64,000 nucleotides of DNA, taken from positions 3,909 to 67,908 of the forward strand of contig MEUC01000002.1 of NCBI GenBank assembly GCA_001771545.1, in the 5' to 3' direction. Shown here one piece after another: positions 6,253 to 63,520 of this stretch. This DNA is from a candidate division WOR-1 bacterium RIFOXYB2_FULL_42_35. Its GTDB lineage: Bacteria; Margulisbacteria; WOR-1; O2-12-FULL-45-9. The position numbers were made by a program, and so were the translations under genes. Each line of letters begins with the position of its first letter. The first letter of the stretch is position 1. The notes under the pieces were generated by a model. It had not been told where the DNA came from and searched no databases. It worked only from the letters and a program-made list of their open reading frames with translations.

Positions 6253-7449
6253 CTAAAGTTTGCTCGCTCTTTTCTTTAATTCGGCTGCCTTATCAGTCTT
6301 TTCCCAGGGCAGATCAAGCTCTGGCCGGCCAAAGTGACCGTAAGCAGCAACTTGTTGATAGATAGGTCGCCTTAGTTTTAGGTGTTTGATAATCATGCCC
6401 GGCCGTAGATCAAAAACCTCTTCAACAAGTTTGCCAATTTTAACATCGGGAATCACCCCTGAATTGTAAGTATCAACCATTACCGAAAGAGGCCGCGCAA
6501 TGCCAATGCCGTAGGCAATCTGCACTTCGCATCTTCTGGCCAAGCCGGCGGCTACAACGTTTTTTGCTACCCAACGAGCCGCATAAGTGCCGGAGCGGTC
6601 AACCTTGGTTGGATCTTTGCCGGAAAAAGCTCCGCCGCCATGTCTGGCATAGCCGCCATAGGTATCAACAATAATTTTGCGGCCTGTAACACCACTGTCT
6701 CCTTGTGGTCCACCAATGACAAATCTGCCGGTTGGATTAACATAATATTTTGTTTCGTTATCAATCAGCTCCGCCGGCAAAGTAGGCAAAATAACCCGCT
6801 CAATAATATCGGTTCTAATCTGCTTAACATCTACTTCCGGGGCATGCTGTGCCGCGATCAAAGCAGTGGTAATTCTAAATGGCTTGCCGTCTTTATATTC
6901 TACGGTTACCTGGGATTTTCCGTCCGGCCGCAGATAAGAGAGTTCGCCGGTTTTTCTGACCTCAGCTAATTTCTTCGCCAATTTATGGGACAAGACAATT
7001 GGCAAAGGCATTAATTCTTCTGTTTCGCTGCAAGCAAAACCAAACATTAGACCCTGATCCCCGGCTCCCAAGCCTTCTAAATCTTCTTTGGTTACTTCCC
7101 CACCCTTAATTTCCAAGGCTTTATCAACCCCGCGGGCAATATCTTTGGATTGTTCTTTGATAGCCACTAAAACGCCACAGGTTTCATAATCAAAACCATA
7201 TTTCGCTCTGGTATAACCAATGTCTTTAATGGTTTTTCTGACAATTTGGGGAATATCAACGTAACAACCGGTAGTAACTTCGCCAGCCACAACACACAAC
7301 CCATTGGTAACCAAGGTTTCTACTGCTACGCGGCCAACAGGATCTTTTTCCAGGATAGCATCGAGAATAGCATCGGAAATCTGGTCGCAGACTTTATCGG
7401 GGTGGCCTTCAGTCACAGATTCGGACGTAAACAAACCGTTCTTCTTCAT
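6253..7449 (-). CDS. metK: S-adenosylmethionine synthetase
   Basis: [33 protein letters not shown]...; full-length 398 aa; GGGAGG RBS upstream. Confidence 0.95.
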
Positions 7450-7578: not shown

Positions 7579-8001
7579 ATGGGTAACCTAAGCGAACATT
7601 TTAACAGTAAAGACTTTGCCTGCCATTGCCCAGAATGCCGCGGTGAATATAAAATTCATCTTGGCTTGGTTGGCGCCCTGGAAATGATTGGCGGGCACTT
7701 CAGGAAAAAAGTTCGCGTCCTTTCTGCGTTTTGGTGTGATACTTATAACGAAAGACAAAACCGACCGAAGCGCAGTTGGCATGCCAGAGGGAAAGCCGCT
7801 CATATTATTATTGAGGGTGTTTCTATTCAAGACCTTTTCAAATTTGCCGAAACGATTCCAGAAGCCCGCGGACTAGGTTTATATCCTAAAGAAAATTTAG
7901 TTCATATCGACACCCGTCCAGGCGACCCTGTTAGATTTGTTAAAGAAGGGAACGATTATCATCCCCTCACCGATGACAGAAGAACCAAATACGGATTATG
8001 A
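7579..8001 (+). CDS. Peptidase M15A / DUF882 (YcbK-like) zinc D,D-carboxypeptidase-like protein
   Basis: FACHCPEC...SAFWCDTYNERQNRPKRSWHARGKAAHIII...NLVHIDTRPGD matches the YcbK/Peptidase_M15_3 pattern. Its stop overlaps the xerC start (ATGA). Confidence 0.65.
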   Translation: MGNLSEHFNSKDFACHCPECRGEYKIHLGLVGALEMIGGHFRKKVRVLSAFWCDTYNERQNRPKRSWHARGKAAHIIIEGVSIQDLFKFAETIPEARGLGLYPKENLVHIDTRPGDPVRFVKEGNDYHPLTDDRRTKYGL

Positions 8002-8894
8002 GCCCGCAACTCGGAACTCGGAACCCGAAATTAATAGATAAGTTCATCAACTACCTCAAGACCGAACGCAATTACTCACCACATACAACCAGCAACTACC
8101 AACGCGACCTAATCTTTCTCATGGATCTTTTAAAGGGGAAGAAATTTGATCGCTCGGCTGCACGGGAATACTTGATTGCCTTGGAACAAAAACATTTTTC
8201 CCGTCGTTCAGTGGCTAGAAAGCTTTCTGCGGCACGCTCATTTTTCCGTTATCTCTTGAGAGAGAAACTGGTTGAGCAGAATCCGTTTGCCAACTTAGTA
8301 ACCCCTAAGCTGCCTAGAAAACTCCCCAACTTCCTCTATCCGGAAGAACTGGACCGCTTACTGAAAGGTCCTGATTTAAAGGCTCCCCTTGGTCTACGCG
8401 ACAAAGCTATCTTGGAAATGATTTATGGCACAGGGCTACGGGTAGCGGAACTTATTATGATTAACAAGAACGATGTTGATTTTGAGGAAGGAGAAGTAAA
8501 GGTCTTGGGTAAAGGTTCTAAAGAACGGATTGTTTTGTTTGGTTCTCATGCTAAAGGCGCCCTATTAACATATCTAAAAGACGCCAGGGATAAACTCAGA
8601 AGCAATAAAGAAATTGCGGCTTTTTTTGTTAATCGTCGCGGCGGCCGTTTAACCGCTCGATCGATCGAAAGGATGCTAGTATATTATAGTAAAAAGGCAG
8701 GAATAACCAAGAAGGTAACTCCCCACACTCTAAGACACTCCTTTGCTACCCATCTTTTAGCTGGCGGCGCTGACCTTCGAATGGTTCAGGAATTGCTTGG
8801 GCATGTTTCACTTTCAACCACTCAAGTCTACACCCATATTACCAAAGAACGCCTCAAGGAAGTCTACGATTCTGCTCATCCACGATCGAGTTAG
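7998..8894 (+). CDS. xerC: Tyrosine site-specific recombinase XerC/XerD
   Basis: C-terminal catalytic region RHSFATHLLAGGADLRMVQELLGHVSLSTTQVYTH. The N-terminus carries an extra MSPQLGTRNPK extension encoded by a heptamer repeat. Confidence 0.88.
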   Translation: MSPQLGTRNPKLIDKFINYLKTERNYSPHTTSNYQRDLIFLMDLLKGKKFDRSAAREYLIALEQKHFSRRSVARKLSAARSFFRYLLREKLVEQNPFANLVTPKLPRKLPNFLYPEELDRLLKGPDLKAPLGLRDKAILEMIYGTGLRVAELIMINKNDVDFEEGEVKVLGKGSKERIVLFGSHAKGALLTYLKDARDKLRSNKEIAAFFVNRRGGRLTARSIERMLVYYSKKAGITKKVTPHTLRHSFATHLLAGGADLRMVQELLGHVSLSTTQVYTHITKERLKEVYDSAHPRSS

Positions 8895-11610: not shown

Positions 11611-11763
11611 AATAGAAGTTGGGTTTTGGTTGTGGAAGCTGGTCTGGAAGTTAGAAATGGTTGTGGAAGCTGGAATTTTCTAGCTTCAAGCTTCTACTTC
11701 TAACATCTTAACTAGCATCTAAAACAAACAACTAGCTTCAAATAAACAGGGGGTAAAAATAGA

Positions 11764-19569: not shown

Positions 19570-20430
19570 ATGAAAACAGCCTTTGTGTTTCCCGGCCAGG
19601 GCTCGCAAACGGTCGGGATGGGTAAAGATCTGGCTGAATCTCTGCTAGATCAAGCTAACCAAATATTGGGTTTTGATCTCAAAAAGCTCTGTTTTGAAGG
19701 TCCGGAAGAAGAACTTAAGAAGACCGAGATCACTCAGCCTGCTATTCTAACTGTCAGCGTGGCTGCCTTCCAACAACTCGCAACCCGCAACCCGCAACCC
19801 GCAACAGTAGCTGGCCACAGCTTGGGAGAATACTCTGCACTAGTAGCAGCTGGAGCTATTAAGTTTGGAGATGCGGTTAAGATCGTTAACCTCCGCGGTA
19901 AGTTTATGCAAGAAGCTGTGCCAATTGGCCAAGGAGCCATGGCCGCTATTATTGGTGGGGAACGAGCTAAAATTGAAGAGGTTTGCGCTGGGATCGAGGG
20001 TGTCTGGCCAGCCAACTTTAACTCTCCTGGTCAAATCGTTATTTCCGGCCAAAAAGAGGCTGTTGAAAAGGCTTCTGCTGCTTGCAAGGATGCCGGAGCA
20101 AAAAGAGCCATCCCCTTGCCTGTTTCCGCTCCTTTTCATTGCCCACTCATGCAGCCTGCTGCTGATAAATTAAAAATGGAACTTGATAAAATTGAAGTCA
20201 AAGACGCAACTATTCCTGTTATTGCCAACGTTACAGCTGCTGCGGTAACCAGCGCTGCTGAAATTAGAGACTTATTAGTCAAACAAGTCACCTCCCCTGT
20301 TTTGTGGGAGGATTCTGTTAAGAAAATGATTGCTGATGGAGTGAGTTCGTTTGTTGAAGTTGGGCCTGGCAAGGTTTTGTCTGGGCTAATTAAAAAGATT
20401 GATAGAAACGTAGAAACTAGTAATGCGTAA
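19570..20430 (+). CDS. fabD: Malonyl-CoA:ACP transacylase
   Basis: MKTAFVFPGQGSQTVGMGKDL...AGHSLGEYSALV. Contains an in-frame (CAAC[CT]CG)4 repeat at 19774-19801. Confidence 0.93.
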   Translation: MKTAFVFPGQGSQTVGMGKDLAESLLDQANQILGFDLKKLCFEGPEEELKKTEITQPAILTVSVAAFQQLATRNPQPATVAGHSLGEYSALVAAGAIKFGDAVKIVNLRGKFMQEAVPIGQGAMAAIIGGERAKIEEVCAGIEGVWPANFNSPGQIVISGQKEAVEKASAACKDAGAKRAIPLPVSAPFHCPLMQPAADKLKMELDKIEVKDATIPVIANVTAAAVTSAAEIRDLLVKQVTSPVLWEDSVKKMIADGVSSFVEVGPGKVLSGLIKKIDRNVETSNA

Positions 20431-21244: not shown

Positions 21245-21320
21245 TGAGTAATGTGTAATGGGTAATGTGAATAGGGAATAATAATATTCACATTACGCAT
21301 TACTATGTTCACATTACTAA
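21245..21320. repeat. GTAATG-family palindromic intergenic element, copy B (between fabG and acpP)
   Basis: AGTAATGTGTAATGGGTAATGTGAATAGGGAATAATAATATTCACATTACGCATTACTATGTTCACATTAC. Confidence 0.7.
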
Positions 21321-21345: not shown

Positions 21346-21591
21346 TTGAACGAACAGGAAGTTTACGAAAAAGTAGTCAAGGTTGTGATAGAACAATTAG
21401 GAGTGTCTGAAGCAGAAATCAAGAAGGAATCATCATATGTTGATGATTTAGGCGCTGACTCACTTGATACAGTTGAGTTGGTTATGGCCCTTGAAGAAGC
21501 TTTTAGCACAGAAATTCCGGACGAAGACGCCGAAAAGATTAAATCTATTGGAGACACTGTTAGCTATATTTTGTCTCACACAAAAAATTAA
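21346..21591 (+). CDS. acpP: Acyl carrier protein
   Basis: [19 protein letters not shown] (phosphopantetheine-attachment Ser motif). Confidence 0.93.
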
Positions 21592-22548: not shown

Positions 22549-23786
22549 GCAAAAGAGTTGTTGTAACAGGCTTAGGAGTTGTTTCCCCAATTGGAATTGG
22601 CAAAGACGATTTTTGGTCGGCTTTAAGCCAGGGCAAAAACGGGATTGACAAGATCACTCTTTTTGATACCACTAATTTCCCAACTAGAATTGCTGGTGAG
22701 GTCAAAGATTTTAACCCTGGGAACTATCTTGACAAAAAAGAAGCCCGTCGCTTAGTTCGTTTCATTCAGTTTGCCATTGCCGCCTCACAACTAGCCCTCA
22801 CAGACTCCGGTTTGACTATTTCTGACAACAACGCCAATGATGTTGGGGTTGTGATTGGTTCAGGGATCGGTGGAATTGATATTTTGGAAAGCGCTGCCTA
22901 TACTTTGAGAGATAAGGGCCCGGACAAACTTAGTCCTTTTACTGTCCCATTTATGATTGCTGATATGGCCGCAGGCTATGTCTCGATCAGTGTTGGCGCT
23001 AAAGGCCCGAATTCTTGTGTTGTCACTGCCTGTGCCTCAGGGACACATTCAATTGGCGAAGCTTATAAAATCATTCAGCGTGGCGCAGCCAAAGCCATGT
23101 TAGCTGGTGGATCCGAAGCATGCATTACCCCGTTAGGAGTAGCAAGTTTTTGCGCAGCTCGCGCCCTTTCAACTCGCAACGATGACCCTCAACACGCCAG
23201 TCGGCCATTTGAGGCCAATCGCGAAGGCTTTGTGATAGGCGAAGGTGCCGGGATTTTGCTTTTAGAAGGTTTGGAAGAAGCCCTTGCTCGCAACGCCAAA
23301 ATCTATGCCGAAGTTATCGGCTATGGCATGAGCGGTGATGCCAATCATATTACTGCCCCCGCCCCCGGCGGAGAAGGCGCTGTTCGCGCAATGCAAGCTG
23401 CCCTTAAAGATGCCAATATCAGCCCGGAGCAAGTTGACTATGTTAACGCTCACGGGACTTCAACCAAACTAAACGACAAGTTTGAAACCATGGCCATAAA
23501 AACTTTCTTTGGTGAACACGCCAAAAAATTAGCTGTTAGCTCAAACAAGTCTATGACTGGTCACATGTTGGGCGCAACAGGAGCAGTTGAGTTTATTGCT
23601 TCTATTCTTTCAATTGTCAACGACACGGCCCCACCAACAATTAACTATGAAGTCCCTGATCCAGAGTGTGATCTCGATTACGTTCCCAACCAAGCCAGGA
23701 AAATGCCGATTAATATTGCTATGTCCAATTCTTTTGGCTTTGGTGGCCATAACGCTATTTTGCTGGCCAAAAAGTATTCTCCTTAA
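22545..23786 (+). CDS. fabF: 3-oxoacyl-ACP synthase II
   Basis: [17 protein letters not shown]...; KAS II motifs; 413 aa. Confidence 0.93.
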
Positions 23787-23795
23787 GAGAGAATA

Positions 23796-26700
23796 ATGAA
23801 AGATCAAAGATCAAAGATCAAAGATCAAAACAAATCCAAAGGTAAAAGCTCCGAAATCCAAACAAATCTAATAATCAAAGGTTCAAGGATTTTGATCTTT
23901 GGGCTTGGATCTTGGAGCTTGTTTTGCGCTTTGATCTTGGGACTTTGGATTTCTTGCCCCTCATTGGCCTACGCTCAAAGCACGATCTATCCTAAATTCG
24001 ACATTTCCGGTTATAAGAAGTGGGAATATAAACGGGTAGATGTTGATCCTTCAAGCAACTATTTCAGCGGCTTAACCCAGCTGGGTGGTTTTTATCAAAC
24101 TTACAGCGGAGGACCATGGCAAGAAAGGCTTAAGCTTAAAATTATCGGCGAGCTCTCAAAAGATCTTTCTGTTACGTACAATATCAATCAACAGCCCGAA
24201 ACCCCCGACCAATTTGACGTACAAGTCAAATATAAAGACACAGAACTAACCTTCGGTGATTTTTCTGCAACTTTTTCTGGCAACGAGTTTGCTTCCGTTT
24301 CTAAAACATTGAATGGGGTAAAGTTGACCTCTAAAAATTCCTGGCACGACGTTCTGGTGGTGCCCTCAACAAAACTTAAAAGCCAAACCCAAGCCTTAAC
24401 CGCCCAAAAAGGCAATAATACCAAGGGCCCCTATAGTCTTGGTCGCGGCTCAATCGTTGAAGACTCTGAAAAGGTTGAACTCAACAACGTCCCATTAAAG
24501 CGCAATGTTGACTATACCATTAACTACTTTGAAGGCAAGATTACCTTCAATAAAATATTAACCACTCTCGATGAGTTTAAATATAGCTATGAGTACACCA
24601 ACATGCTGGATCTCTTTTTCCCTTCGCTCTCAAAAAGAGACTTTTTTGGTTTTCAATCAAGATTTACAATTGATCCCAAAGAAGTTGGCAAGCCACCGCT
24701 CAAAAAGCAGTTGGTTGTTTTATCCGATCAACAGCAATTTCCTTCTTCGGGCAGCCTTGAGGCCGGTTTAACGGAAGCAGAAAGCAGTGGCCGCTATCTA
24801 ATCAACAATTACCCCCTCGTCGATTTCAGCGAAAAAATAACTTTTCTTGGTGCGGAGCTGCAAAAAAATACTCATTATATTGTTCGTTACGAGACAGGAG
24901 AAATAAAGCTTTTAACCAATACCTTGCCAACCGCAGCCGACCCCCTGACTGTTCAGTACAAATACTATAAAGTTTCCGCGGAAACAGACGCAATCTTAGG
25001 CATTGGGGGGCGCGGTCCTTATCAACTGAAAAATAATGGGCTTGTCTCCGAGAGTGAACGAGTGGAGGTTAATGGCCAGCTCAATGTCCGTAATTTAGAT
25101 TATTCTATTGATTACACCACCGGCCAAATTGTTTTTGGTATTCCGGTTAGTGAAACTTCACAGATTAAAGTTTCATACAAATACAAAGCCCTGGAAACCC
25201 CCGTTGAAACAAAGTCTAAATTTCCAACCGAACTAACAGTTGGCGCAACTTATCTGCGAGAATCAGCCAAAAAAACCAGCGGAACCAACATTGTTACAGT
25301 AATTGAAAGTATCACCGGACAAACAATTATTAACAAGAATTACCTAGCCTATCTAGCCAACCGTCCTTTGGCTGACAGCAGCGAAGCAACCACAACCCTA
25401 ATTGTTAAGGTTGATGGGCAAACCCTGACCCGGGAGGTTGATTATACTGTTCCCACAACCTACGTTGATCCCAGCACCGGCTACGCAGTTGTTACCCCGG
25501 AAGCAACCCTAGCCTACATCAATGATCGCGCTGATACTACTAATGGTTATGGCACCGGTACAATCTTATTTTTAAACCCGAGCACTGTTCTGGCTACCAG
25601 CTCAGTTACCGTAACCTATACGTATCAAAAAAACATTGTTGGCAAATTTTCCGGTGTGGGCAACGAAACCACTGGCCCATATTATTTAAGAAACGTTAGA
25701 AATGTTGTCCCCGGATCGGAAACTCTTCAGGTTTGGGAAAGGGGCTCCTCGACCATTACCACCTACACCCGCAACTCAAGCTTTGAACCAGACGCTGGCA
25801 GCACCGGCTATTCAATCAATTATGACGCTGACAACCCTTACATAACTTTTAACAATGGACTTTCCAGCACCAAGAACTTTCAGTTGATTTATCAATATGT
25901 TCCACCCTTGGGAGCAACAAATAACGCTGATTTAGCCCAATCCATTCTCGGTTTTGATACCAGTTTTAAAATCGGCAACCTCTTTAAAATAGACAGCGCT
26001 TATGCCCGCAGTGAAACTGACCAGGTTTTTATGGCTGAAGCAACCAGCGAAAGTTTTACCGGCAACGGAACCAAAACGTATTTACTACACTCTAGCGCGA
26101 CTCTGATCGAAAACAGTGAAAAAGTTTCGGTCAATAATAATACCCTTAATAAAGACTTGGACTATTTTGTTAGCTATACTAGCCCTGGCAAGGTTGTTTT
26201 CTATTATATTACCCCAACAACTGCCGATGCTATTGTTGTTGACTATAAATACCAATCCCTTTCCGGTATAGCCTCCGGGCAAACCAGTAAAGTTGACAGC
26301 GCTTATAGCCTTGGCGCAGAAACCAAAGTTTTTGGAGACACCTTGACCCTCTCTGGGGTGACCAAAAAGATTGGTCAAGATTTTACCCCCATGGGCGGCA
26401 CATCAATTGGTTTGGGCTCGAGTTATAATGCCTATGATCTTAAATTCCAACAAAAAAACTTCCACTCATTAACTGCTAATTATTCCTACAAAGAAAACAC
26501 CAATCCTTTAAGCACTTACCGGGATCGTTTTTTAAAAAGTTATGACAACTCAATAAACCTTGGGATTGACCCTAACAAGTTAGTAAAAATAGCTCTTTAC
26601 TATCGAGACTACCGGACAATTGACGACCTTTTGCCTGCTAGCACCGCCCACGCCAGTGACAACCAACAACAATCTTATTCCCTTAGTCTTGTGCCAAAAA

Positions 26701-28020: not shown

Positions 28021-30300
28021 TTAAAGGGCGATTAACTTGCCCTTGGCAATTACTTTGTTTCCTGATATTACTTGAAAAATATATACACCGTTGGGTACAC
28101 TTGTCCCAAACAGATCAATTCCATTCCAACTGGGATCATTACTGCCGGCCTTGGCTCCGTTTTCACCAGCAATATAATTCTGCTGCCAGATTAGCGTCCC
28201 GGTTAAATCAAAAAGATAAATACTGGTGTTGAAGTTTCCTTGCAGACTATAATTAAAAGTCACCGTGGAGGCAGAACTGCGCACAAAAGGATTGGGTAAA
28301 GCATAGGCCATTGGCAAACCAGTTTGGGTTTCCGCCGCCTTGGCGGGTTCCGAACTGTTTTGCAGATTAAGTAAAATTGTTTCCAGGCTCGTTGCCCCTG
28401 TTTGATCATAAGCTGTTAATTTTAAAGTGTATTGGCCGGATAATCCGGCTGTTTCCCAGGTTCCCAAAACGCCAGCTTCTACTGTGCTATAAGATTCCTC
28501 ACCATAAGCCGGTAATGGCCGCAATCTTATTTTGGTAAAAATTGTTGGGGAAGCGCCCTGGCCATATTCCAGATAATATTTATCGAAATTAAAATCTGTA
28601 GCTGTTCCGGAAATAGTAACATCTCCGGTAACGGTGGCTCCCGATGTAGGGGTAGCAATCAGGGCTTGGGGCGGCGTGTTATCAATAACTATCGCGATTG
28701 AGGCTTCATCACTAACTCCCGCAACTGTAGAATAGACATTAACTGCAACAGTATAGTTGCCGTCTGTTACAGCTGTTGTATCCCAAGTTGCCAACAAATT
28801 AGCGGTTGCGGCGGTTGTGCTGCTGCCAATACTGGCCACAACACTGCCAGCCTGCAAAGCTAGAACTTCATAACTGCTAAAAGTTTGACCGGCAGCTGTC
28901 CCATAAATTTCTACGCTCCCTTTGATGTATGAATTGGACTCTGGCGAGGCAATTGCTGCGGTTATTGCTGCCAAAGCCTTACTAACATTAATCCTGCCAC
29001 TCCCTAAATCACCTAGGTACGTTGGGTTTTGCGCATCAATATTATCAGCAGAGGTTGTCACTGCATTGGTTATGTCTGCAACAGTCATAGCCGGATATTG
29101 GGCTTTCATTAAAGCAGCTAAGCCCGCCACAAAAGGAGCAGCAAAAGAGGTTCCATTGTTCCCCAAATAATAACTGCCATCCATGGTAGTCGTCATTATG
29201 CTGCTGCCGGGAGCACAAACACTGATCCAACTGCCATAATTAGAAAAGCTTGATTTAATATCGCTACTATCAACAGACGCAATTGCCAGCACTGTATCGT
29301 AACCGGCAGGATAGCGCAGAGAGGTAACGTTGTCATTGCCGGCAGCTGCTACCAGAACGGCCCCATTGTTATAAGCATCGGAACAAGTACTCTGCAGGCC
29401 AGAGGGAGAAGAATTAAAACCAAAACTCATGTTCATCACATCAACATTACGTGAGCTAGCATAAGCAATAGCGGCTTTTATATTAGTATTTGTTCCTGTT
29501 CCACTACTGTCTAAAACTTTAAGCGGCAAGATCTTTGCTTGCCAATCAACACCAGCCACTCCCTTACCATTATTGGTCACTGCGCCAAGGACACCAGAAA
29601 CTTTGGTGCCATGACCAAAATCATCTTCCGGGTCATCATCATTATTAACAAAGTCCCAACCATGCGAGTCAATCTTGGCAGCTAAATCTTCATGGTTAGA
29701 ATCAATGCCAGAATCCAAAACTGCAATAACCACACTGGAAGAACCCGTGGTCTGATCCCAGCCGGACGGGGCCGATATATTTGTTAATCCATATTGACTA
29801 CTGTAATAAGTGTCATTGGGAATAGTCGCATACGCTTGGGCAATCTCGTCTGGAGAAGCTGAGACAACATCAGGATTATTTTGGTATTCCGCTGCTACAG
29901 TTTCAACATTTTTATCTTCAGGAAAGTAAATAACATAGTAATCTTTGAGATGGGTCCAATCTGGTCGGTTTTCTAAAGCCTTGCTATAAAGCTGTTTAAT
30001 TTTATAAACCCCGGTTTTGTAGCTTAAGGCTTGAACCGAATTAGACAGGAACTGGGCTTTATCAACAGAAAAGGCTGTTGCCCCTTGAGGTAAAACAATT
30101 TGTTCCGGTTTAAACTGGACCAAGATTTGACCGGGGGCATAGTCAGCCAGAGATAAAGATGACAAAGAAACCCAAAACCCAAAGATCAAAATCCCCAGCA
30201 AGCTCCAAATCCCAAATCCCAAGTTCCAAATTGCTTTTGATTTTGAAATTGGAGCCTGAAGCCCATTTTGATCTTTGATCTTTGATCTTTGGTCTTCCAT
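28021..30300 (-). CDS. Subtilisin-like serine protease (peptidase S8) with a C-terminal FlgD-Ig / T9SS-type sorting-domain-like tail and the shared extended N-terminal leader
   Basis: Catalytic triad blocks VAVLDSGID (Asp), HGTKVSGV (His), GTSFAAPFVAGLAAL (Ser). C-terminus LPNPF...IYLFDLTGTLIW...PNGVYIFQVISGNKVIAKGKLIAL. N-terminus MEDQRSKIKDQN...NLGFGIWSLLGILIFGFWVSLSSLSLA|D. Confidence 0.85.
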   Translation of the reverse strand: MEDQRSKIKDQNGLQAPISKSKAIWNLGFGIWSLLGILIFGFWVSLSSLSLADYAPGQILVQFKPEQIVLPQGATAFSVDKAQFLSNSVQALSYKTGVYKIKQLYSKALENRPDWTHLKDYYVIYFPEDKNVETVAAEYQNNPDVVSASPDEIAQAYATIPNDTYYSSQYGLTNISAPSGWDQTTGSSSVVIAVLDSGIDSNHEDLAAKIDSHGWDFVNNDDDPEDDFGHGTKVSGVLGAVTNNGKGVAGVDWQAKILPLKVLDSSGTGTNTNIKAAIAYASSRNVDVMNMSFGFNSSPSGLQSTCSDAYNNGAVLVAAAGNDNVTSLRYPAGYDTVLAIASVDSSDIKSSFSNYGSWISVCAPGSSIMTTTMDGSYYLGNNGTSFAAPFVAGLAALMKAQYPAMTVADITNAVTTSADNIDAQNPTYLGDLGSGRINVSKALAAITAAIASPESNSYIKGSVEIYGTAAGQTFSSYEVLALQAGSVVASIGSSTTAATANLLATWDTTAVTDGNYTVAVNVYSTVAGVSDEASIAIVIDNTPPQALIATPTSGATVTGDVTISGTATDFNFDKYYLEYGQGASPTIFTKIRLRPLPAYGEESYSTVEAGVLGTWETAGLSGQYTLKLTAYDQTGATSLETILLNLQNSSEPAKAAETQTGLPMAYALPNPFVRSSASTVTFNYSLQGNFNTSIYLFDLTGTLIWQQNYIAGENGAKAGSNDPSWNGIDLFGTSVPNGVYIFQVISGNKVIAKGKLIAL
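30268..30296. repeat. (AGATCAA)x3-4 heptanucleotide repeat at the 5' end of the subtilase CDS (minus strand)
   Basis: Plus strand tttgatctttgatctttgatctttggtc. Confidence 0.8.
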
Positions 30301-32599: not shown

Positions 32600-32685
32600 G
32601 GAGGGGTAGCAAAGCGGTCAAATGCTCCTGACTGTAAATCAGGCGACTTCGGTCTTCGGAGGTTCAAATCCTCCCCCCTCCACCA
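32600..32685 (+). tRNA. tRNA-Tyr (anticodon GTA), long variable arm, encoded CCA
   Basis: Acceptor GGAGGGG/CCCCTCC; anticodon loop cuGTAaa; T-arm GGAGG-TTCAAAT-CCTCC; discriminator A followed by CCA. Confidence 0.85.
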
Positions 32686-37134: not shown

Positions 37135-38883
37135 ATGCAGTCCCAAATCAAAATCCTCCCCGAAGACCTGATTAATAAAATTGCCGCCGGTGAAGTGATT
37201 GAACGGCCGGCTTCTGTAGTCAAAGAATTGGTTGAAAATGCCATTGATGCTAAGGCCACAAAAATCAGCGTGGAAATTCAAAGCGCTGGTCGAAAATTAA
37301 TTCGCGTCTCTGATAATGGCCAAGGGATGACTAAAGATGAAGTTAAGCTTGCCATTGAACGACATTCGACCTCGAAAATCAACAAGTTAGACGACCTGTT
37401 CAATATTCAAAGTCTTGGGTTTCGTGGAGAAGCCCTTCCTTCTATCGCTAGTGTGTCGCGGCTGGAAATTAGAAGTGGGGTTAGGGGTGAAGATGCCGGT
37501 ATGGAAGTGGGAACTGAGATGTTGGTAGAGGGAGGGAAGGTAGAAAAATTGGAGGAGGCAGGTTGTCCGGTTGGAACCACTGTCTCTGTCAAAGATTTGT
37601 TTTTTAACACTCCAGCCAGGAAAAAATTTCTGAAATCCCCAGCCACAGAAATGGGGCACATTGGTGACATTGTCACAAAATATGCCCTGGTCAACCCACA
37701 GATTGCTTTTTCTCTTGTTTCTGACGGCAAACCACTTTTTTCTTCGGCCGGAACAGGTAAGTTACTTGATACGATTGTCTCTGTTTACGGAGCTGAGCTG
37801 GCTAAAGGGTTAATCGAAATTAACTATAGTAATGTAAGGGGCTATGTTAATAAGCCCAATATAAGTCGGATTGGCCGCGATTATATGTCATTCTTTGTTA
37901 ATGGCCGATATGTTAAAAACTTTTTGCTTAACCGGGCTTTGGAAGATGCCTATAGAACTTTGATTCCTAACAACCGCCACCCAATTGCTGTCCTTTTTCT
38001 GGAAGTTAATCCTAAGGAAGTTGACGTTAACGTCCATCCCAGCAAGCGGGAAGTTAAATTTCTGAAAACTAACGAGGCAATGGAAGCTGTGCGTAGTGCG
38101 GCAAAAACTGCCCTGTCAAAGATTCTAGATAATCAGGGTATCGGTGGATCAGAACGAGAAGATCAGAATACCAGATCATCAGAGTATCAGACAGGAAAAC
38201 AAAGCTGGGAACCTGGCATGGCAGATGTCTTGTTTCCACCAGAGGAAGTTTTTCCGGCTGATAACTCGCAACTAGTAACTCATAACCTTGTCGAGATGGA
38301 AGTTACCTCCATTCAACCGTATTTTCCCATTTACCAATTCAAAAATACTTATATCATTGCAACGGATGGAGAAGAATTGGTTCTAATTGACCAACATGCT
38401 GCACAGGAGAGGATCATTTATGACCAGCTAAGTAGCACAGTAGCCAGTGAGCCGGGTAGCCAAGTCCGACTGTTGCCAGAAACTATTGAGCTAGACACAA
38501 AGGCAACGATTATCTTACAAGAAAACTTGGGCTATTTAAAAAGTTTAGGCTTTGATCTAGAAGAATTTGGGGCTAATTCGTACCTCATGCGTTCTGTGCC
38601 TGCTTCGGCAGTTAAATCATCAGCAAAACAGTTGGTCATGGACATTATTGCTGAGTTGCAGAGCCTAGGCAAATCCGCCCAGCTTGAAACTAAGCAAGAA
38701 AACATCCGTAAAACCATTGCCTGCAAAGCTGCTGTTAAGGCTGGAGATAAATTAAGCCGGGCAGAAATGAGCGGTCTGATCAGAGATTTATATAGTACGC
38801 AAAACCCCCTCACCTGCCCCCATGGCCGGCCTACTATTATAAAGATCACTGAAGATGAGTTAAAGAAACACTTTAAAAGGTAG
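37135..38883 (+). CDS. mutL: DNA mismatch repair protein MutL
   Basis: IKILPEDLINKIAAGEVIERPASVVKELVENAIDA; DNGQGM; C-terminal dimerisation/endonuclease region. Confidence 0.92.
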   Translation: MQSQIKILPEDLINKIAAGEVIERPASVVKELVENAIDAKATKISVEIQSAGRKLIRVSDNGQGMTKDEVKLAIERHSTSKINKLDDLFNIQSLGFRGEALPSIASVSRLEIRSGVRGEDAGMEVGTEMLVEGGKVEKLEEAGCPVGTTVSVKDLFFNTPARKKFLKSPATEMGHIGDIVTKYALVNPQIAFSLVSDGKPLFSSAGTGKLLDTIVSVYGAELAKGLIEINYSNVRGYVNKPNISRIGRDYMSFFVNGRYVKNFLLNRALEDAYRTLIPNNRHPIAVLFLEVNPKEVDVNVHPSKREVKFLKTNEAMEAVRSAAKTALSKILDNQGIGGSEREDQNTRSSEYQTGKQSWEPGMADVLFPPEEVFPADNSQLVTHNLVEMEVTSIQPYFPIYQFKNTYIIATDGEELVLIDQHAAQERIIYDQLSSTVASEPGSQVRLLPETIELDTKATIILQENLGYLKSLGFDLEEFGANSYLMRSVPASAVKSSAKQLVMDIIAELQSLGKSAQLETKQENIRKTIACKAAVKAGDKLSRAEMSGLIRDLYSTQNPLTCPHGRPTIIKITEDELKKHFKR

Positions 38884-49477: not shown

Positions 49478-49557
49478 AGTAATGCGTAATGGGTAATGCG
49501 AATATTCTCATTACCTGCTGGCCGGCAGGCACATTACTCTATTCACATTACTTTCAT
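49478..49557. repeat. GTAATG-family palindromic intergenic element, copy C (between thrS and a small ORF)
   Basis: AGTAATGCGTAATGGGTAATGCGAATATTCTCATTACCTGCTGGCCGGCAGGCACATTACTCTATTCACATTAC. Confidence 0.7.
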
Positions 49558-49620
49558 GCAAGTTTGGCCCAACTTAATACGATATATATCGTGATGGGGT
49601 ATCACAAGGAGGAATAAACC

Positions 49621-56916: not shown

Positions 56917-57625
56917 GTTTTATTTGCTCCTCTGTTTGGCCAAACTTTCTGAGCCTTTGTTGATAAGCTTCTATGGCTTCTTTCAATTGTTCCCGTCTAA
57001 AGTCCGGCCAAAGAACAGGGGTAACATAAATTTCTGCGTAAGCAATTTGCCAAAGCAGAAAATTGGAAATTCTCATTTCGTTAGCTGTGCGAATTAATAG
57101 GTCGGGATCTGGCATTCCTTTGGTGTAAAGATGTTTGCCAATTGTTTCTTCGTCGACATTGTTAATTGTTAATTGTTCCTTGATCATTGATTGCATTGCA
57201 TCCACCAGCTCCGCCCGACCACCATAATTAGCCATTATGTTTAAAACAACCCCGGCATTGTGCTTGGTTTTCTCGGCGGCTCCTTGCATCTTCTGCTGTA
57301 ATTCTGCGGAAAACTCTTGGGTGCGGCCCAAAAAATTGATTTTAACCTGGTTGGCCATTAGCTCTTCCAGTTCGCTCTCAATTTTTTCGGCAAAGAGCGA
57401 CATTAAAAACTCTACTTCTTCTTTTGGTCGCTGCCAATTTTCTGTGGAAAAAGCATAAACAGTTAAGTATTTGATCCCAAACTCAGCACAGGCCCTGAGA
57501 ATTTCTCTGAGAGCTTCGGTCCCTTCGCGGTGACCGGCAAGCCGCGGCAACCCGCGCTCTTTGGCCCAACGGCCATTGCCATCCATTATCGCGGCAATAT
57601 GTTGAGGAATGTTTTTAGAGTCCAT
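56906..57625 (-). CDS. uppS: Undecaprenyl pyrophosphate synthase
   Basis: HIAAIMDGNGRWA... Confidence 0.92.
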   Translation of the reverse strand: MDSKNIPQHIAAIMDGNGRWAKERGLPRLAGHREGTEALREILRACAEFGIKYLTVYAFSTENWQRPKEEVEFLMSLFAEKIESELEELMANQVKINFLGRTQEFSAELQQKMQGAAEKTKHNAGVVLNIMANYGGRAELVDAMQSMIKEQLTINNVDEETIGKHLYTKGMPDPDLLIRTANEMRISNFLLWQIAYAEIYVTPVLWPDFRREQLKEAIEAYQQRLRKFGQTEEQIKHAA

Positions 57626-61729: not shown

Positions 61730-63520
61730 ATGAGTTGTCCTACGCTTTATCCTAAACGCTACGATGTCATTGTCATCGGTGCCGGGCATGCGGGGATTGA
61801 AGCCGCCTTGGCCGCTGCTCGTTTGGGTTGCCAGACCTTGCTCTTAACAATGAACATCGACACCATTGCTTTTATGCCTTGTAATCCGGCCATTGGCGGT
61901 CCAGCCAAAAGTCAGCTTGTGCGAGAAGTTGATGCCTTGGGCGGGCAAATGGGAATTACAACAGACTTAACCTTTCTGCAAACGAAAACCTTAAACACCA
62001 ACAAAGGCCCGGCCGTCCATGCTTTACGTGCGCAATCAGACCGTTTGCAATACCATCAAGTTATGAAACGTCTGTTAGAAGAACAAAAAAATCTTGATTT
62101 AAAACAAGGGATGGTCGAAGAAATCTTGACGAATAAAACTCGCAACTCGCAACTCGCAACTATCGGGGTTAGAACAAAGCTAGAAACCATTTATCATGGC
62201 AAAACTGTTGTTGTAACAACTGGGACCTTTTTAAAAGGACGAATCCATACTGGCATGGTACACATGGAAAGTGGCCGGGCTGGAGAATTTCCAGCCGTAG
62301 GCCTATCTGCCAGTTTAAAAAAGCTAGGCTTGAAACTCGGTCGGCTTAAAACCGGCACCCCAGCCAGGTTAAATAAAAGATCCATAGATTTTTCCAAGAT
62401 GAGAATTCAACCGGGAGACGAACCGGTCAAACAGTTTTCTTTTACTTGGGAATACAAACAATATGGTTTAAAGGTTCCGGAAAACCCTCAACTAGAACTG
62501 CCTCAGGTTCCCTGTCACTTAACCTGGACAAATAATAAGACCCATAGAATTATAAGAAAAAACTTACATCGTTCCCCTCTTTTCTCCGGAAAAATCAAGG
62601 GGACGGGCCCAAGGTATTGTCCTTCTATTGAGGACAAGGTTGTTCGCTTTCCCGACAAAGACCGGCAGCAATGTTTTATTGAACCAACCGGCCGGGACAC
62701 CCTAGAAATGTATGCCCAAGGAATGAATAGTAGTTTACCGGCAGATGTTCAACTGGCGATGTTCCAAACTATGCCCGGCCTGGAAAAAGTGGAAATTATC
62801 CGCCCTGGTTATGCGGTTGAGTATGATTATGTGCCGCCTTATCAGCTCACTTATTCATTAGAAACAAAAATAGTTGGCGGTCTGTTTTGTGCCGGACAGA
62901 TTAACGGCACTTCAGGCTATGAAGAAGCTGCGGCTCAAGGCATTGTTGCTGGTATCAACGCAGTAATGAAGGTCAAAGGGAAAAAGCCAGTTCTGTTTGG
63001 CCGGGAAGAGTCTTATATTGGCACCTTAATTGACGACTTAATTACTAAAGATATTGAAGAGCCCTATCGCATGCTAACTTCACGATCAGAATACCGACTG
63101 CTGCTTAGGCAGGACAATGCTGACCTGCGTTTAACAGAAAAAGGTCATAAGGTTGGACTAATCTCAAAGAGCAGATATAACTGTTTTCGGAAAAAGAAAG
63201 AAGCACTTGAAGATAAAGCCAGGATTTCTCCGGAAGTATCGGAGCAAATCGATATTACCCAAAAATACGCTGGCTACATCGTCAGACAGCTGCAGCAAGT
63301 GGAAAGAGCTAAAAGATTAGAATATAAAACCATCCCTAAAAACCTAGATTTTAAGAACCTGCACGGCCTCTCAAAAGAAGCCAGATATAAACTGGAAAAG
63401 CTCCGGCCCGCTTCCATTGGCCAGGCCACCAGGATTGCCGGGGTCTCCCCTGCTGACATCTCTGTGCTGCTGGTTCACCTGGAAACATATAGACGCAAAA
63501 CCGGCTGCGTGATAAAATAA
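61730..63520 (+). CDS. mnmG: tRNA uridine 5-carboxymethylaminomethyl modification enzyme MnmG (GidA)
   Basis: [23 protein letters not shown]... (FAD fold). Contains an in-frame (CAACTCG)3 repeat at 62136-62160. Confidence 0.93.

Follow-up and report, generated by a model that had tools for sequence, protein, structure and literature searches.

Heptanucleotide repeats lie in frame in conserved genes of a candidate division WOR-1 bacterium and keep their gene positions, but not their sequence, across related species

The window analyzed here, a stretch of 64,000 nucleotides of contig MEUC01000002.1 (positions 3,909 to 67,908 of the forward strand), comes from the uncultured candidate division WOR-1 bacterium RIFOXYB2_FULL_42_35 (Saganbacteria; GTDB Margulisiibacteriota) from Rifle groundwater and carries tandem heptanucleotide arrays in frame inside the conserved genes fabD, mnmG and xerC. 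What is unusual about these arrays is chiefly that their 7-periodicity persists at the same gene positions across related species despite change in the sequence itself. The arrays are probably heptanucleotide simple sequence repeats (SSRs) that arise by copying at a 7-nt offset, are filtered for reading frame by selection and are homogenized mostly without change of length. A first-pass annotation of this DNA had viewed them as insertions of a three-copy module left by some sequence-specific process; our results bear out the repeats and the identities of the three genes and revise much of that interpretation.

Array positions were obtained by direct reading of the sequence and with Tandem Repeats Finder (TRF), and genes were identified with Pfam. 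The malonyl-CoA:ACP transacylase gene fabD (19570..20430, + strand; PF00698; E=1.4e-91 to 1MLA) has its called start at the ATG at 19570, not at a TTG. Its array, CAACTCG followed by three copies of CAACCCG and a final CAAC, occupies 19774..19805 (+), encodes QLATRNPQPAT in frame and is scored by TRF as period 7 with 4.6 copies and 96% matches; the loop that holds it precedes the GHSLGEY nucleophile elbow. In mnmG (gidA; 61730..63520, +; Pfam GIDA, 3.6e-158, and E. coli MnmG structures), the units AAACTCG, CAACTCG (twice) and CAACT at 62136..62161 (+) encode KTRNSQLAT, also in frame, at a β-hairpin turn of the FAD domain, and TRF (62137-62161) reports the unit AACTCGC in 3.6 copies with 100% matches. 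The tyrosine recombinase gene xerC (7998..8894, +; PF00589 and PF02899) carries AGCCCGC, AACTCGG (twice) and AACCCG(A) at 8001..8027 (+), which encode SPQLGTRNPK from codon 2. There, TRF finds 2.4 perfect copies of AACTCGG at 8008-8024, flanked by the variant units AGCCCGC and AACCCGA, and the whole array comes to about 3.5 copies. AACTCG and AACCCG units are mixed within both the fabD and the xerC arrays. Immediately upstream of xerC lies an open reading frame (ORF) for a Peptidase_M15 (D-Ala-D-Ala carboxypeptidase-like) protein at 7579-8001, the stop codon of which overlaps the xerC start as ATGA; this gene pair is kept in the related loci L314-L316.

With 96-100% TRF matches and lengths of 25-32 nt, all three arrays are long SSRs composed of tandem, head-to-tail heptanucleotides. 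The first-pass annotation had translated all three sites correctly (including QLGTRNPK of xerC), had placed the arrays properly in loops or at a terminus and had recognized their shared unit family, with a xerC start coordinate about 2 nt off. Its central premise, that exactly three copies (21 nt) are present and that any other number would inactivate the gene, does not hold, as the real copy numbers are 4.6, 3.6 and about 3.5 and no discrete 21-nt module exists. The reading frame is preserved by the total length of the gene segment, which is a multiple of three, and not by the presence of three units.

The arrays exceed chance expectation by a wide margin. For the motif CAACYCGCAAC, 0.01 occurrences are expected in the window and 7 are present; for AACYCGNAACYCG, at one mismatch or fewer, the figures are 0.5 and 9. 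It had been asked whether the motif might merely be a frequent k-mer, which is not the case, since the array units are infrequent as 7-mers outside the arrays (3-7 occurrences of CAACYCG-family units in the window, against a uniform expectation of 7.8). A fourth match to CAACTCGCAAC, at 23170, proved to be the conserved FabF motif STRNDDP, with no repeat. Across the window, perfect period-7 tandem runs number 7 where a third-order Markov model predicts 0.08, and an excess on this scale is absent at all other periods from 4 to 12. TRF reports about 15 period-7 arrays of diverse units, about 10 of which lie inside ORFs. Ten pairs among the 15 arrays share their unit within one mismatch (2.65 expected, P ~0.001), and a single unit family is common to three to four loci (xerC, fabD, mnmG and mutL) within 64 kb.

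All three genes first named are thus affected, and three was an undercount, as in-frame arrays are also present in uppS, in the mutL linker and at the N-termini of two secreted proteins. The uppS array, (AACAATT) x2.9 on the minus strand (57158..57177; gene assigned by Pfam), encodes EQLTINNV in frame. In mutL, the degenerate array TAACTCG CAACTAG TAACTCA TAACCTT (38262..38289, +) encodes NSQLVTHNL within a flexible linker. The mutL gene is complete (37135-38883) and also contains a period-8 repeat at 38431-38462; loss of MutL is therefore not readily an explanation of the heptamer excess.

The orthologous DNA of FabD, XerC and MnmG was compared in Saganbacteria relatives. In FabD of seven species, 7-periodic DNA occupies the same 45-nt segment in the same register. 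The repeated unit is CAACCCG in the window, CGACTCG or CGACCCG in L317, CAACTCA or CAACTTA in L318, CAACTTA or CAACTAA in L319, CAACAAA in L015, CGTCCCT in L012 and TAACCAG-like in L022. Identity between FabD units is 0.79 within a species, whereas between species it is 0.52 for units at the same index and 0.51 for units at different indices, a pattern characteristic of concerted evolution or of arrays regenerated again and again in one fixed register. The first FabD unit shares bases with the end of the helix before it, which is conserved (F-x-Q-L, with Q-L encoded by CAA CTC). Where a species has other codons in this flank, its unit is similar to them, which suggests that FabD arrays are seeded from the flank.

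In XerC and MnmG, the site of the array is likewise kept across species while the units change. The XerC unit is AACTCGG in the window, CACTCCG in L316 (86% identical), AATCCGA in L314 (where the peptide is NPKSEIRNPK) and AACCCGC in L315; that of MnmG is AACTCGC in the window, AAACTYG-like in L320 and AAACCAG in L321. The peptides encoded at these positions differ wholly between species, and the peptide is therefore not what is conserved. Taken more broadly, 379 kb of Saganbacteria/Margulisiibacteriota sequence, including the window, contain 40 period-7 arrays (26 of them outside the window), many of which are located near the start of long stop-free frames. A density count at fabD-centered loci gave 2.45 perfect period-7 runs per 100 kb in Margulisiibacteriota and 2.55 in outgroups, the latter inflated by near-identical Veillonella loci and heptamer-rich Dialister loci, and speaks neither for nor against a clade-specific excess.

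Whether the segments are lineage-specific insertions, as had been proposed, was addressed by segment lengths in orthologues and by alignment to solved FabD and MnmG structures, which places the array segments. From ITQPA to GHSLGEY, the FabD of the window measures 35 residues, as compared to 35-36 in most of 120 orthologues, and the same segment of E. coli FabD (1MLA) is one residue longer than that of the window. Relative to E. coli MnmG, the hairpin segment has 5 additional residues, and the resulting length class of 44 is common to about 30 close relatives with other peptides at this position (KTRTKKLET, KTRNQKSES, VGGRGTEV). Since this extra length is present in relatives without a perfect repeat, it is probably older than the repeat. 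The XerC N-terminus up to ERNYS comprises 27 residues in the window; a base class of 19-23 residues is accompanied by further groups at 26-30, 32-35, 40 and 48, which roughly fit 7-residue (three-unit) steps on a variable base. Of the three genes, only xerC looks as if it carries a true extension, of about 7 residues, and the notion of lineage-specific insertion can be retained for that gene and not for fabD, which is unlengthened, or for mnmG, whose extra residues are common to relatives. A transposon or other insertion footprint was not found at these sites: FabD shows no net gain, there are no shared flanks, and orthologous sites hold other units.

Copy number is stable. Exact-product look-ups retrieved the identical proteins from at least 24 contigs, assembled independently and belonging to several assemblies, which excludes an assembly artefact. 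The 90% clusters of FabD, MnmG and XerC each contain one or two sequences, and all variants within them (FabD T3S, MnmG N440K and the XerC C-terminus) fall outside the arrays. No copy-number variants of the arrays occur among the public copies covered by these look-ups and clusters.

These observations can be accommodated by a model in which copying at a 7-nt offset, through replication slippage, transient strand misalignment or short-tract conversion, would create and homogenize 7-periodic DNA throughout the genome. Inside genes, purifying selection would purge frame-breaking or otherwise disruptive outcomes, so that arrays would persist only if their total length is a multiple of three, and only where the peptide barely matters, namely at the N-termini of XerC and the secreted proteins, in the FabD loop, at the MnmG hairpin turn and in the MutL linker. 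Seven and three have no common factor, so that every array passes through all three frames, and the same unit yields T-R-N-[PS]-[QK] everywhere. Length changes able to pass selection would come in 3-unit (7-residue) steps, as may have happened at the XerC N-terminus; otherwise the arrays would change by conversion of one unit to another at constant length, in many cases apparently with a seed in conserved flanking sequence (in FabD, the Gln-Leu codons CAA CTC). For the peptide itself, we infer no specific function.

Several points weigh against this explanation. Simple slippage does not explain why one unit family is found at dispersed loci of one genome, and yet xerC, fabD, mnmG and mutL share such a family in the window, and in L317 the FabD unit is also that of the fabG-acpP hairpin described below. 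The closest relatives of FabD (P0003, 88% identity) and of MnmG (P0122, 85%) have no array, and the arrays have thus also been lost, or have been gained repeatedly; as far as sequence comparison goes, these two relatives would fit common ancestry with loss and independent regeneration alike. Length-neutral conversion is, moreover, read from end states only, and the lasting 7-periodicity could also stem from selection on the DNA or RNA.

A gene for a 1406-aa secreted or membrane protein (N-terminal region 23796-23960, +; no solid Pfam match) carries (AAAGATC) x4.4 at 23799..23829 (+), which encodes codons 2-12 (MKDQRSKIKDQ), and inverted, degenerate GATCTTG-type heptamers at 23894..23960 (+), which encode the hydrophobic helix of its N-terminus. 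Pairing of the two segments in the mRNA is predicted to form a hairpin of -55.9 kcal/mol (z = -4.3 relative to shuffled sequences). The same unit recurs at the N-terminus of an S8 subtilase (MEDQRSKIKDQ...), where (GATCAAA)n and (GATTTGG)n occupy 30205..30296 (-). The subtilase gene (N-terminal region 30300-30168, -) is convergent with the 1406-aa gene, and both proteins begin with M[KE]DQRSKIKDQ by virtue of (AAAGATC)n and have a hydrophobic signal or anchor helix encoded by inverted GATCTTG/GATTTGG heptamers, such that the mRNA 5' end can fold into a long hairpin. The orthologues in L317-L319 are devoid of the N-terminal extension and begin straight at a normal signal peptide. L314 has the same layout as the window, with (AAATGTC) x4.7 at 510-542, at codon 4 of a 921-aa ORF, and inverted (GTCATTT) x3.9 at 588-614, at codon 30. 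In Saganbacteria, the N-terminal regions of large secreted proteins seem to be a hot spot at which inverted heptamer pairs recur.

Intergenic arrays of the window also occur as inverted pairs. One of them, (GTAATGN) x3 followed by inverted CATTAC copies in a hairpin-like arrangement, lies at 21248..21320 (also given as 21246-21320) between fabG and the next gene (start near 21346); a second (GTAATGN) x3 with inverted CATTAC copies is at 49479..49560 (also given as 49478-49560). In L317, a hairpin of GGGTCGC/GCGACCC heptamers (6705-6777) sits where the window has its fabG-downstream hairpin, and the next gene is a called PP-binding (acyl carrier protein, ACP) gene; the hairpin seems to be conserved and its heptamer genome-specific. 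An intergenic TTCTAGC/TTCAAGC array at 11678-11702 spaces UAG triplets 7 nt apart, which resembles the HutP-type pattern (UAG-N4)3 and is presumably a coincidence. Inverted pairs of (CAACTCG)n arrays, kilobases apart, were also seen on the metagenome contigs L111 (110-133 and 12434-12456, near both contig ends) and L196 (3086-3111 and 6832-6862), and these pairs could be terminal inverted structures of some element.

The sharing of units between loci raises the possibility, which we put forward only tentatively, that the dispersed arrays of one genome, in-frame and intergenic hairpin arrays together, exchange sequence with one another and are overwritten in a constant 7-nt register, with no insertions or deletions. 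Such sharing is also seen in L317, where the heptamer CGACYCG of the FabD array turns up again in the hairpin between fabG and acpP, at a distance of 1.5 kb (6 matches, 0.04 expected). If such exchange takes place, each Saganbacteria genome would have its own co-evolving set of heptamer units, an active conversion or templated-copying mechanism, rather than plain slippage, would be indicated, and the frame-constrained arrays would provide a natural assay for the origin of bacterial heptamer repeats, including those of cyanobacteria.

A related but unlikely alternative is that one heptamer family has been spread to many loci in a sequence-specific manner, for example by ectopic gene conversion between arrays, a small mobile element that carries the repeat or a templated enzyme, so that one agent would have hit all three genes. 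This is close to what the first-pass annotation had in mind, and the part of that idea which stands is that more than independent chance links the loci (10 similar pairs against 2.65). To this can be added the identity of the L317 FabD unit with that of the nearby intergenic hairpin and the mixture of AACTCG and AACCCG units in both fabD and xerC. In metagenomes, (CAACYCG) arrays of at least 2.5 units are found on at least 120 contigs with a GC content of 0.33-0.72, and, among the matches listed, about 9 of the 120 contigs hold two or more well-separated arrays of this unit within a few kb. The uncultured Dialister sp. L060 (20.9 kb; also L061), of an unrelated lineage, has about 10 perfect runs in 21 kb (up to TGGTGAC x5.1), in both orientations and apparently in two unit families, GGGATTA/CTAATCC and GGTGACT/AGTCACC. 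Against such spreading, the three sites have no flanks, terminal repeats or associated gene in common, FabD is without net insertion, and orthologous sites elsewhere already hold arrays of other units and were thus not newly hit. Arrays of 25-32 nt are also near the lower homology limit for RecA-dependent exchange. Nor is the heptamer itself special, as had been supposed. In a complete count of 18-nt patterns in viral contigs, CAACYCG at period 7 gave 56 stretches and its dinucleotide-matched mirror unit CAACGCY 46, as compared to 18 for a period-8 pattern and 4 for a non-periodic pattern of equal composition; 7-periodicity is therefore generally enriched and CAACYCG is not, and the mirror control rules out CAACYCG as a globally favored unit.

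Selection could instead act on the 7-periodicity as a cis-acting signal in the DNA or mRNA (phased sites for a single-strand-binding or cold-shock-type protein, a translation pause or a local structure), tolerated where the peptide is free to vary. The periodicity is indeed held at the FabD, XerC and MnmG positions as the peptide changes completely, the intergenic arrays are inverted, hairpin-forming pairs, the 5' end of the mRNA for the 1406-aa protein is predicted to fold far better than shuffled sequences, and binding of CspB to heptamer repeats has been discussed (PMC4679880). We consider such a signal improbable all the same, as the units vary by species and locus in a way that no single sequence-specific factor would fit, the closest relatives have no FabD and MnmG arrays and no visible compensation for them, the three genes are functionally unrelated, and no Rfam family matched an array at the gathering threshold (the sole match in the window was a tRNA at 32600).

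It is very doubtful that the arrays are phase-variable contingency loci, at which slippage by one unit would toggle a gene off and on. The phase variation of the H. influenzae HMW adhesins is reportedly driven by 7-bp repeats, and those hmw loci resemble the arrays described here in having a unit not divisible by three in or near a gene. Coding SSRs, above all those near N-termini, are the classic switch (PMC3315296). However, fabD, mnmG, uppS and xerC are housekeeping genes, neither they nor mutL are surface, host-interaction or restriction-modification genes, the public copies covered by the look-ups and clusters contain no copy-number variant, and the arrays are short, with 2.4-4.6 units. 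Protein-level convergence, in which T-R-N-[PS]-[QK] would have been selected in three proteins with the DNA repeat incidental, has next to nothing to recommend it beyond the shared pentapeptide, given that the pentapeptide follows automatically from one 7-nt unit read in three frames and that orthologues have unrelated peptides (TTHNLQLTT, ATRDSRPAT, SSYVPRPSF, NPKSEIRNPK), all of them likewise specified by heptamer arrays. The units CAACTCG and CAACCCG also do not fit the slippery heptamer of programmed -1 frameshifting (X XXY YYZ).

The dominance of 7-nt units, and the presence of few units at many loci of one genome, have been unexplained since heptamer repeats were described in cyanobacteria. 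Arrays locked in a reading frame are informative in this regard because single-unit slippage is forbidden in them, and their homogeneity within a genome, together with divergence between genomes, argues for conversion-type copying at a 7-nt offset, for the testing of which FabD, XerC and MnmG across Saganbacteria make up a comparative data set. Segments of this kind also give rise to lineage-specific peptides in conserved enzymes, and these should not be taken for functional motifs or for the scars of mobile elements.

A literature search returned nothing on repeats in Saganbacteria. As relayed by two later papers, heptanucleotides outnumber all other classes of long SSR in the majority of prokaryotic genomes, and slippage of the polymerase, with a preference for steps of 7 nt, has been put forward to explain them (Mrazek et al., 2007, via PMC4679880 and PMC4692102). 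The arrays of the window are like those long 7-nt SSRs in their head-to-tail units, their excess over expectation and over other periods of 4-12 nt, and their patchy distribution among lineages, in which Dialister loci are rich too. In the accounts available of that survey (Mrazek, Guo and Shah, 2007), an intergenic location is stressed and units within genes are expected to be divisible by three, whereas the arrays described here are mostly in frame in genes, some of them essential, have a fixed copy number and have orthologous arrays elsewhere. More generally, SSRs are better tolerated at the termini of proteins (PMC3315296).

Among the more narrowly defined families, the TAACTGA direct repeats of marine Beggiatoaceae and some Cyanobacteria and Bacteroidetes (PMC4679880) similarly consist of one favored heptamer at many loci, with 2-6 copies per set. 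They differ in lying mostly just upstream of start codons and in having stops in the forward orientation, whereas the units of the window are stop-free and inside ORFs; TAACTGA can be translated in one orientation and, according to its author, might then be acceptable at either end of a protein (PMC4679880). The GGGNATC repeats of Xanthomonas and Nostoc (PMC4692102) are also heptamer arrays spread over a genome, sometimes as inverted pairs and with a preferred small copy number, but are G-quadruplex-forming and under-represented in coding regions. No G-quadruplex is expected for the arrays of the window: at least four consecutive G3/C3 tracts would be needed, and fabD has three CCC tracts while mnmG and xerC have none or one. 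Phase-variable loci, as discussed above, part from the present arrays in copy-number variation, gene class and array length. Rickettsia palindromic elements, reportedly dispersed palindromes of 100-150 bp found in frame in genes, are said to be similar in placing repetitive DNA in frame at surface positions of essential genes, whereas the arrays of the window are tandem, 20-32 nt in size and without element structure.

The arrays also resemble the short tandemly repeated repetitive (STRR) sequences of cyanobacteria. Saganbacteria are usually placed near Cyanobacteria and Melainabacteria. The STRR families of Calothrix PCC 7601 and Nostoc/Anabaena (PMC4692102) consist of few specific heptamers, each in tandem at many loci of a genome, and the window may follow the same pattern, with one unit family at three to four loci within 64 kb; STRRs have other units, a cyanobacterial host and a mainly intergenic location, whereas the arrays of the window are mainly in ORFs. 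A cyanobacterial origin of the window itself was rejected, as GCGATCGC (HIP1) occurs 0 times in it and the host is WOR-1/Saganbacteria. The sharing of units between loci of one genome is an STRR-like family property, and of the idea first proposed for these genes it is this part that holds up. In summary, the arrays resemble cyanobacterial STRRs and are neither the footprints of an element, nor phase switches, nor a selected peptide motif. The over-representation of heptanucleotides was already known, and what is new is their in-frame, orthologously recurring and unit-sharing behavior.

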